From: Acidobacteriota bacterium
Lineage (GTDB): Bacteria > Acidobacteriota > UBA6911
Assembly (NCBI GenBank): GCA_963664705.1
Contig: OY761556.1
Coordinates: forward strand, 6,528,001 to 6,592,000
Length of the DNA: 64,000 bases
Direction of reading: 5' to 3'
Shown: piece after piece, positions 28,919 to 31,112 of the stretch
Position numbering within the stretch: the stretch's first letter is position 1
Layout: each line of letters opens with the position of its first letter
The notes under the pieces: model-generated
The model's input: only the letters and a program-made list of their open reading frames with translations
Told to the model about the DNA's origin: nothing
Database searches by the model: none
Made by a program: the position numbers and the translations under genes

Positions 28919-29035
28919 GGGAGCGCCGACGCCTCCATAATGCCATTTACTTTTTTCAATTGCCGTTCTTTCGCCCCGCTGGGGCTCATTTTTGTGCTTA
29001 TCTCTACCAGGGGTTCGCTGCGCTCACCCCTGGCT
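28919..29035. repeat. Left part of the nested REP/MITE element interrupted by the IS110
   Basis: GGGAGCGCCGACG..TAATGCCATTTAC..CCAGGGGTTCGCTGCGCTCACCCCTGGCT. Confidence 0.8.
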
Positions 29036-29126
29036 GATATGGAGTGATCGGTCAAGTACAATCAATCCGTTCCTTGTTCGTTCATTTTGGTTTTCTTCGG
29101 TTCATAAATAAATCAGCCAGTAAAAA

Positions 29127-29309
29127 GAACAGGGGATCGAGTTGGCAACAGCGACGATAATCAATCTGATATTCGCGGGTCGATAAGCACGCATGACAAC
29201 TGATTCATCGGGAGCGGCCTCACTCTACTTCCGTGGATTCTGGTTTCCCATACCAACATAGCCAGGTCGAGGTTTCTCCTTTCGAAGCCTGGAACTCGAT
29301 CTCCTGTTC
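29127..29309 (-). ncRNA. Predicted bridge RNA / seekRNA of the IS1111-type element
   Basis: 17-bp closing stem GAACAGGAGAUCGAGUU/AACUCGAUCCCCUGUUC around two internal-loop hairpins. Their loops carry CCUGGCUA + GAAGUAG (target) and UUGUC + AUAUCAG (donor). Confidence 0.8.
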
Positions 29310-29381
29310 CGTTCACTGACCGAATGTTTCCGTTATTAATCCATTGAAGAACAAAATAGCTGCAAGAGCTGGTGCCTTATG

Positions 29382-30476
29382 TCATGCAACACGACCGATA
29401 GCCCAGATAAATCCTGCCAATTCTCGACTTACCGCAACCGCGATCTTTTGTCTTTCTTTCCCTCGGTTGAGCATGCGTCGGAATTTTTGGTTCAATCGCT
29501 TATCGCAACGTTGTGCAATCTCGATAACTTCTGCCGGTAAACACTCTCGTCGTTTCTTGAGAGTTTTGCCAGCTACTGAAGAATGACGGTAGTGCCAGGC
29601 GCTTTCGATCAGCACCCTACGTAGGTGACTGTTTCCCGTTTTGGTTATCCTTCCCCGTCTTTCAAGTTCACCTGAGCTGCTTTCCGAAGGCACCACCCCA
29701 ATAGCGGCCATAAACGAAGGCGCATCGACGAACCGTCTTAAATCGAGCGCTTCTGCGATAATCGTCATCGCCGTCAGAACCTGAACACCTTTTAGCGCCA
29801 TCAAATAGCTGACTCGCTTTTGATAGTTCGGCTGTTTTGCAACTTCCTCGATTTTTTCCTGGAATTTTTTCAACCGCTCCGTCTGTTGCTCAAGCGCCTG
29901 TCGATATTCCTCCAGTACTGTTTGATCCCCATCATCCTCAAACACAAGGCTCTTAATCCATTTTAGGTGCCCAAGCGACCAGTTCTTGCCCTGCGGATAT
30001 TTCAATCCACGTCGCATCAGAAACCGTGCTAATCGATGCCGTGCTCGCTGCTGGTCTTCCAATGCGTCTTCTCGCGCGCGCACTAGATCTCGCAGACTTT
30101 CCTGTTCTTTTTGCGGGATCACAATACATGTTAGTTCTCCCGCTCGGTACAATTTGCCCAGGGCTTTCGCATCCAGCTTATCCGTTTTTACTTTTTTCCC
30201 CGCTCGTCTCGGGGTCAACGAAGGGGCCGCAACCTCACAAGAAATCCCATGTTTGGCCAAATAGCGCTGCAAATAGTATCCATTAACGCCCGCTTCGTAG
30301 ACGCACCGTACATCATCTTCAAATGCCCTTAGCTTTTTCGCTAATCGCCCCAGCCCCGTACTGTCGTTTGATACAACAAGTTCTTCTCGTGGGTTACTTT
30401 CCTGCCCGCGAAAAACTGCGACGTTTATCTTTTTTGCTGAATCATCCATCCCTACCCAAGTGATACAATCTGCCAT
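29382..30476 (-). CDS. IS110 family DEDD recombinase (transposase)
   Basis: VGMDDS, YEAG, KTDKLDA (DEDD); C-terminal VPSESSSG serine, ITKTGNSHLRRVLIESAW, VAVSRELAGFIW; GAGGAG RBS before ATG at 30476. Confidence 0.95.
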   Translation of the reverse strand: MADCITWVGMDDSAKKINVAVFRGQESNPREELVVSNDSTGLGRLAKKLRAFEDDVRCVYEAGVNGYYLQRYLAKHGISCEVAAPSLTPRRAGKKVKTDKLDAKALGKLYRAGELTCIVIPQKEQESLRDLVRAREDALEDQQRARHRLARFLMRRGLKYPQGKNWSLGHLKWIKSLVFEDDGDQTVLEEYRQALEQQTERLKKFQEKIEEVAKQPNYQKRVSYLMALKGVQVLTAMTIIAEALDLRRFVDAPSFMAAIGVVPSESSSGELERRGRITKTGNSHLRRVLIESAWHYRHSSVAGKTLKKRRECLPAEVIEIAQRCDKRLNQKFRRMLNRGKERQKIAVAVSRELAGFIWAIGRVA

Positions 30477-30575
30477 GATCGGTCTCCTCATGTTTTATGG
30501 CTCTGCAGCTTCGTCACCACGACTTCAGCTGTAACCCACGATATTACATGCTAGAGACCGATCACTCCATTATGT

Positions 30576-30897
30576 CTACAATCTGCCGCGCCTCCGGCGC
30601 TGACATGATTGCGATTCCAAGTACTCAGGGCAAATAGTGTGCAGCATCAGCCGGGATGGCGGCGTCCCCAGCATGTACTTCAAAAAAATTCCGCTGCACC
30701 TCGCTGTGCCAAGGCTGGATCCGCTAGTTAGCGCTGCAGCTGCATGATAATTGTTCTGAGCTCTGCGACGCGAGCGAAGCGCCAGGCCCGGAGGGCCGAA
30801 AGCAAGTAGCCAGCGCAGCGAACCCCTGGATTGGATTAAGCCTGTAACCAGCCCTGAAGGGGCGAAAGAAAACATCGGGAAAAATTAACTGGCATTA
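30576..30897. repeat. Right part of the interrupted REP plus a further family-A half ending in TGGCATTA
   Basis: CTACAATCTGCCGCGCCTCCGGCGCT...; GCGCAGCGAACCCCTGG...GCCCTGAAGGGGCGAAAGAA. Confidence 0.75.
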
Positions 30898-31013: not shown

Positions 31014-31112
31014 GGAGGTGAATCTGGCCTGGTGGCTGGCCTGGACTTCAAATCCAGTTGTGGTTTACCGGAAGGTAGGCTAGGTGGGTTCGATTCCCAT
31101 GCACCTCCGCCA
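31014..31112 (+). tRNA. selC: tRNA-Sec (anticodon UCA)
   Basis: CTGGA-CTTCAAA-TCCAG anticodon arm, 6-bp D stem with 4-nt loop, 9-bp variable arm, GGTTCGATTCC T loop, G73 and encoded CCA. Confidence 0.95.

Follow-up and report, generated by a model that had tools for sequence, protein, structure and literature searches.

Organization of the element and of its target repeat

The window, by which we mean the whole stretch of 64,000 nucleotides analysed here, contains an IS1111-type element of the IS110 family. The body of this element comprises 1,540 bp (29036-30575), lies between two CT dinucleotides (29034-35 and 30576-77), and interrupts a repeat formed by two hairpins. The features of the locus are listed below, with the basis of each in brackets.

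29007-29033, plus strand: left half of the interrupted repeat (hairpin 1), the last 5 letters of which are the left target (sequence; context shared by 10 of 11 copies)
29034-29035, plus strand: core dinucleotide CT, equal to AG on the transposase strand (sequence; 11 of 11 copies; loci of relatives)
29036-30575, minus strand: body of the insertion sequence, 1,540 bp (same length in all 11 full copies)
29039-29053, minus strand: subterminal inverted repeat of the right end, 15 bp, separated from the end by 3 nt (end comparison)
29050-29055, minus strand: predicted -35 hexamer TTGACC of a circle-junction promoter (consensus match)
29118-29320, minus strand: predicted bridge RNA, with long outer stem, multiloop, target arm, and donor arm (folding; alignment of relatives)
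29164-29173, minus strand: right donor guide, the second of loop 2, AAUAUC-AG with AU as handshake letters (sequence; covariation)
29195-29199, minus strand: left donor guide, the first of loop 2, UUGU-C with AUG after it (sequence; covariation; IS621 track)
29223-29231, minus strand: right target guide, the second of loop 1, GAAGU-AG with AG as handshake letters (sequence; covariation)
29259-29266, minus strand: left target guide when read in the IS621 frame, the first of loop 1, CCUGG-CU-A (position in sequence; covariation)
29382-30476, minus strand: IS110-family recombinase, 364 aa (PF01548, PF02371; NF033542; D11, E61, D99, D102, S268)
30556-30570, minus strand: subterminal inverted repeat of the left end, 15 bp, separated from the end by 5 nt plus the core (end comparison)
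30569-30574, minus strand: predicted -10 hexamer CATAAT, 17 nt from the -35 after end joining (consensus match)
30576-30577, plus strand: second core dinucleotide CT (sequence; copies)
30578-30600, plus strand: linker and hairpin 2, forming the right half of the interrupted repeat (arranged like the intact copies)

The recombinase matched PF01548 and PF02371 in profile searches and scored 209.7 bits against NF033542, for which the cut-off is 140. Alignment and motif content indicated that its residues D11, E61, D99, D102, and S268 correspond to the catalytic residues of IS621, and the protein displays both the DEDD RuvC domain and the Tnp domain with conserved serine that characterize the IS110 family. 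Similarity to the IS621 protein itself was distant (E = 5e-7). The nearest named relatives that we found were ISSso6 (38% identity to an ISSso6-family protein over 359 aa) and ISEc45 (36%). With 364 aa, the recombinase is longer than the members of the tight IS1111 transposase cluster (330-350 aa).

The ends of the element are those of IS1111, with 15-bp subterminal inverted repeats carrying extensions of 7 nt on the left (core plus 5 nt) and 3 nt on the right. The same holds for the position of the non-coding sequence, of which 346 nt are downstream of the gene and 99 nt upstream. Joining the two ends creates TTGACC and CATAAT spaced by 17 nt, each matching the consensus in 5 of 6 letters, a promoter predicted from the sequence only. 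Among the clusters of relatives described below, the junction -10 reached 4/6 of the consensus in 42 of 72; at the -35, TTGAC was favoured by the end finder. The linear element yielded no minus-strand promoter in a promoter scan. Circle-junction patterns were absent from the genome, 183 loci, viral contigs, and four runs assembled as contigs, a form of data that drops rare forms.

The host genome (G000; 6.89 Mb in one contig) harbors 11 full copies of the 1,540-bp element, and the proteins that they encode are 98.9-100% identical, one copy bearing an internal stop. All 11 copies displayed identical ends and cores, a fixed orientation in the target, and no long terminal repeats, and a single position varied across their non-coding regions. 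Ten are inserted at one point of the two-hairpin repeat and the remaining one at a non-hairpin site. The empty site reconstructed by removing the window element occurs intact at two other places in the genome. The boundaries, CT cores, and restored site of the original prediction are thus borne out by the sequence, by the identical ends of the 11 copies, and by the two uninterrupted sites. Since the 11 junctions are identical and independent contigs span the element end to end, a chance match or an assembly artefact is ruled out as its source. This is a real and intact insertion sequence, very likely RNA-guided and probably mobile until recently.

The copies fall into two sequence types, of 3 members (including that of the window) and 8 members, which differ at 11 positions of the gene and possess the same non-coding region. 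Three further sites are common across both types, a hint of exchange between copies of the element. A lone left end of 91 nt is located in the repeat at the usual point (G000:C1, about 4126129-4126219) and runs into the remaining hairpin; it likely represents a twelfth insertion, most of which has since been deleted. A selenocysteine tRNA (31014-31108, plus strand, 70.6 bits) is found about 440 bp from the window element.

The target repeat resembles Acido-Lenti-1 (RF01687), as in both a GCUA linker connects two hairpins, and the element is inserted at the position equivalent to the CT of this linker. Unlike Acido-Lenti-1, which Rfam lists as an sRNA, the sequence found here behaves as a dispersed DNA repeat used as an insertion target. 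Matches to the family were weak at the interrupted site (30576-30601, 20.4 bits) and at a nearby intact copy (score of 23), both below the cut-off of 37, and the occupied variant of the repeat was under the cut-off wherever it was scored. In the genome as a whole, 12 intact copies were over the cut-off and 36 reached E <= 0.001, with 150 scored of about 1,448 candidates, while a pattern search retrieved 112 copies of hairpin 1. RF01687 matches below the cut-off were also detected near 3 of the 10 loci of relatives that were scanned. A second, empty copy of the repeat (30784-30829, minus strand) faces the interrupted one, and facing repeat pairs also flank several relatives (L082, L105, L163, and L173).

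Occupancy varied both with letters and with hairpins. Among hairpin sites, an element was present in 9 of 46 that end in CCTGG versus 1 of 76 that end in the one-letter variant CCCGG (p = 6e-4). Among CCTGG sites, the 9 of 46 within hairpins compare to 1 of 122 without a hairpin (p = 4e-5). This preference could stem from a structural gate, such as the one described for ISPpu10, or from counter-selection of insertions that hit genes. Recognition of the target is probably made more specific by the hairpin.

Predicted bridge RNA and covariation of its guides

The non-coding region is more stable than expected (fold z = -2.82), and 2 of 200 shuffles were equally stable. The original prediction placed in it a 17-bp stem enclosing two similar hairpins with their loops. 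The stem is recovered, with 16 of the 17 positions paired, since 29134 and 29302 form an A-C mismatch on the minus strand, and it extends beyond the proposed length, to about 29118/29320. Both loops are present as well, as arms of a multiloop and not as hairpins set directly in the stem. The four guide strings were all located at their predicted coordinates, each unique in the non-coding region. For these motifs, picked post hoc, four matches in the same order appeared in 1 of 200,000 shuffles of the region. One string needed correction: the first G of GAAGUAG, proposed to match the right target, fits none of the 11 insertion sites, while the other four letters fit 11, 10, 8, and 6 of the 11, counted from the core.

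The RNAs of 20 close relatives also adopted a predicted architecture in which an outer stem leads to a multiloop with two arms. In their alignment, 94.6% of cells were paired, compared to 39-45% when the structure was slid, and two-sided changes were observed in 21 of 51 pairs versus 12.4 in shuffles; the consensus structure derives from the same alignment, a circumstance that biases these scores in its favour. The folding energies of the two strands were nearly equal (-73.4 vs -70.6) and do not discriminate between them, hence the RNA was assigned to its strand by gene direction and guide order. No Rfam family matched the predicted RNA at E <= 1. In several relatives (L164, L122, and L146), we noticed an inverted match of 11-15 bp between a stretch of the left end and the donor-arm hairpin and guide; the corresponding regions of the window are 30512-30524 and 29188-29174.

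Relatives were collected by scanning genome and metagenome contigs, with the best 80 of 89 and the best 80 of 442 kept in the first two scans, and 137 genomes of the class. This resulted in 181 loci, 11 of which are the element's own copies. Both ends could be identified in 127 loci, and 120 of these displayed AG on both sides, a count that includes the 11 own copies and for which the core was not a search criterion. Grouping by non-coding sequence gave 73 clusters, of which 72 were analysed after exclusion of L125 (mis-called end). Guide positions were taken from the RNA alignment, blind to the target of each element, and matches were evaluated by a permutation test over the 72 clusters. Because kin share letters, we added a kinship-aware test, using edge-disjoint pairs on a quick transposase tree. 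The targets of relatives were mostly taken from a single flank.

The guides of loop 1 covaried with both strands of the target. The first guide matched the element's own target at positions 1 to 5 in 60/69, 63/69, 57/69, 58/68, and 40/67 clusters (about 18.5 in shuffles), and the edge-disjoint pairs were 16:1, 18:1, 19:1, 24:0, and 13:4. For the second guide the counts were 69/70, 63/68, 37/66, 26/66, and 20/66 (shuffled 40, 21, 17, 17, and 17), with pairs of 14:0, 18:0, 15:3, 11:4, and 5:3. From these counts, this guide would read 2-3 letters past the core. The base that follows CU in loop 1 also tracked the target (54/69 vs 39.4; pairs 7:1); it is complementary to a letter of the second guide too, and RNA-RNA pairing may be an alternative explanation. 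Six close relatives (L162, L081, L163, L085, L165, and L164) are inserted in similar hairpins whose stems differ in sequence, and their guides have changed accordingly; L083 displays one mismatch. ISSso6, which is outside the cluster set, follows the same guide rules by eye. We regard the predicted target loop as established by comparison across relatives.

Meanwhile, the guides of loop 2 covaried with the joined ends, on few independent changes, since the donor sequence varies little. At its two free positions, the second guide matched the element's own right end in 72/72 and 71/72 clusters (shuffled 64.4 and 57.3), with pairs of 4:0 and 6:0, one of the six being a half match (L081). Three further positions are fixed by the alignment anchor, and L137 and L044 mismatch there. 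The first guide matched its own donor in 50, 60, 51, 35, and 41 of 72 clusters (shuffled 46.5, 42.9, 31.1, 25.5, and 33.7), and its pairs were 1:0, 3:0, 8:0, 4:1, and 2:0. The donor-side results of 4:0, 3:0, and 2:0 have p > 0.05, and pairs are common to several positions. The left donor guide, which the original prediction had flagged as its weakest assignment, also tracks the donor (8:0 at one position), and its form with one core base is that of IS621. It has four matching letters in the window element and a poor match in several relatives. On these comparisons, the putative donor loop is well supported.

The letters that follow the right guides stand where IS621 has its handshake letters. 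Those of loop 1 matched the donor in 69/71 and 41/71 clusters (shuffled 61.6 and 26.8; pairs 2:0 and 4:0). The first of loop 2 matched the target in 14 of the 16 clusters in which it is not A (pairs 6:0), but in 55 of 72 clusters it pairs with the donor of the same element. By our count, the window element would form a single Watson-Crick handshake pair before strand exchange and a single one afterwards. IS621 has one before and three after; from this difference, a weaker insertion bias would be predicted.

Among the cross-loop controls, none of the eight was significant in the pair test, and one was significant by permutation (first guide of loop 2 against target +1, 22/71 vs 13.8, p = 2.5e-3). 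A few clusters did not fit the guide rules (L061, L135, and L060). The first target guide of L061 agrees more closely with the right flank of L135 than with that of L061 itself, and the first target guide of L135 fits neither; these are possibly hybrid elements or assembly joins. Six clusters displayed an altered second core base at the right end only, either AA (L110, L156, and L053) or AC (L049, L046, and L169), and the target guide shows a matching change at this position in L156, L053, L049, and L046.

A lack of guide-target covariation was among the outcomes that the original prediction had named as refuting it. Its recovery in both loops across the 72 clusters supports the notion of an intact, programmable recombinase-RNA pair with its own specificity.

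Proposed mechanism and alternative readings

Collectively, these findings make it highly probable that this IS1111-type element encodes a two-loop bridge RNA that guides its recombinase, with loop 1 matching the target repeat and loop 2 the joined ends. As the RNA matches change in step with targets and ends across dozens of relatives, the element very likely works like known bridge recombinases, with a target of its own. By analogy to IS621, ISEc11, and CazIS110-1, the ends would join at the core to form a circle, and the circle would build the TTGACC-17-CATAAT promoter, leading to transcription of the gene and then of the RNA. Loop 1 would open the target over about 5 letters to the left of CT and 2-3 to the right, loop 2 would open the donor junction, the serine would cut at the core, and the handshake letters would pair with the incoming strand. 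Since the RNA lies after the gene, the guides would read the strand opposite to it, which accounts for the 'reversed' order reported for IS1111, yet keeps the same register as IS621. This register, read on the plus strand, also explains the short left donor guide.

At the strand-exchange step, the same guides might serve a different chemistry, in which a single strand is copied out and the old site is kept, instead of conservative two-strand recombination. We give this possibility slightly less than an even chance. Copy-out has been reported for CazIS110-1 and, in a cell-free system, for IS621. A rejoined target was not observed in the case of ISEc11, and the eleven copies in one genome fit copying. 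Against this, the junctions left behind by excision of IS621 were found in E. coli; the sequence of the window fits both routes alike.

A further alternative concerns the role of loop 2. According to the seekRNA model, loop 1 suffices: the subterminal repeats allow the protein to recognise the ends, and loop 2 is either not needed or removed by processing. A short, target-only RNA was indeed more abundant and sufficient in ISEc11 (PMC11187229), and target-only RNA made up 90% of the bound RNA of CazIS110-1; moreover, the subterminal repeats of the window element are long and conserved, and its left donor guide is short. However, the letters of loop 2 change with the ends in independent lineages and the handshake letters track the opposite partner, which a dispensable loop would not maintain, and full transposition of CazIS110-1 required the whole RNA. 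We thus consider this model improbable for the window element. That the protein selects the repeat by hairpin shape, with incidental RNA matches, is extremely unlikely: ISPpu10 does need a target stem-loop and guide-matching sites are occupied much more frequently within hairpins than elsewhere, but one copy lies outside any hairpin and still matches the guide, hairpins with a one-letter change are avoided, guides of relatives track unrelated non-hairpin targets, and most sites outside repeats may fall within genes, from which selection would remove insertions.

Within the preferred reading, that of a two-loop bridge RNA, we tentatively put forward a broader scenario, which we hold to be possible and rather less likely than its opposite. 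The ISSso6/ISCARN28 clade would be a distinct subfamily of bridge recombinases, combining IS1111-type ends with an RNA in the IS621 register that has short guides, and gaining specificity from the DNA hairpin. Its donor-loop handshake would in most cases pair with the element's own donor, which would bring insertion and excision closer to balance than in IS621. Members near the genome of the window would have been repeatedly retargeted to stem variants of Acido-Lenti-1, itself a REP-like DNA repeat and not a small RNA. The target site suggests that an Rfam 'sRNA' without assigned function may serve as a landing site in DNA.

Comparison with known systems

The level of novelty implied by the original prediction is not supported. 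The clade is already represented in ISfinder, and the scaffold recurs in ISSso6. Moreover, PMC11208160, where bridge RNAs are predicted for 93% of IS1111 elements, shows predicted guides for target and donor in six elements, including ISCARN28. The source data of PMC11187229 label ISSso6 as IS1111, and the matrix of that paper gives it about 18-25% identity to the core IS1111 proteins, 15-19% to the IS110/IS900 block, and 43-49% to its own clade, with ISCARN28 being 44% identical to ISSso6. A copy of ISSso6 displays the same end layout, AG core, and two-loop RNA as the window element, and its guides likewise fit its own flanks, while ISCARN28 has motifs in common with the window recombinase, by eye. 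In contrast, the window element differs from the ISSso6, ISEc45, and ISCARN28 clade in its target and guide letters and in its long enclosing stem.

The element is similar to IS621 (PMC11208160 and PMC11208158) in its CT core, REP target, and order of the four guides. The left target guide carries two core bases in both, the left donor guide carries one core base followed by AUG, and handshake letters follow both right guides, according to the design track in the supplement of PMC11208160. Unlike in IS621, the RNA is located after the gene and not before it, the recombinase is distant, the subterminal repeats are long, the arms are set on a multiloop, the left guides are shorter (5 vs 7), and the right donor guide is unbroken. 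The pairing of the donor-loop handshake letter with its own donor in 55/72 clusters is a further difference, and this state lowered insertion in IS621.

The seekRNA elements ISEc11, ISPa11, and ISKpn4 (PMC11187229) also possess a downstream non-coding region, subterminal repeats, extensions of 7 and 3 nt, a junction promoter, and a top-strand match that precedes the bottom-strand match, and ISPa11 targets a REP as well. Their proteins have 330-350 aa compared to 364 aa, and the ISSso6 clade is about 18-25% identical to them. PMC11187229 reports target matches only, whereas a donor loop is evident from comparison in the window element.

In the searchable literature, to which most subscription journals, figures, and bioRxiv supplements do not belong, we found neither an experimental test or covariation analysis of a bridge RNA in the ISSso6/ISCARN28 clade, nor a link between Acido-Lenti-1 and an insertion sequence. 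Five short strings of the window element were absent from the searchable supplements of PMC11208160. Further cited literature includes PMC13626964, PMC13604230, PMC12288879, 10.1101/2025.10.25.684509, 10.1101/2025.05.14.653916, and PMC2864571, and the preprints 10.64898/2026.08.14.744561, 10.64898/2026.03.19.712850, and 10.64898/2026.08.31.748434.

The kind of system, along with a prediction for the ISSso6/ISCARN28 clade, is already in print. What appears to be new here is the support that comparison of relatives lends to a donor loop in an IS1111-type element and, likely, the role of Acido-Lenti-1 as a DNA target. On the donor loop of such elements the founding papers differ: one of them predicted it and the other found target matches only. 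The clade provides clean comparative support for a donor loop, together with a position-by-position design map that makes it directly testable, and it supplies about 70 natural sets of recombinase, guide, and target far from IS621.
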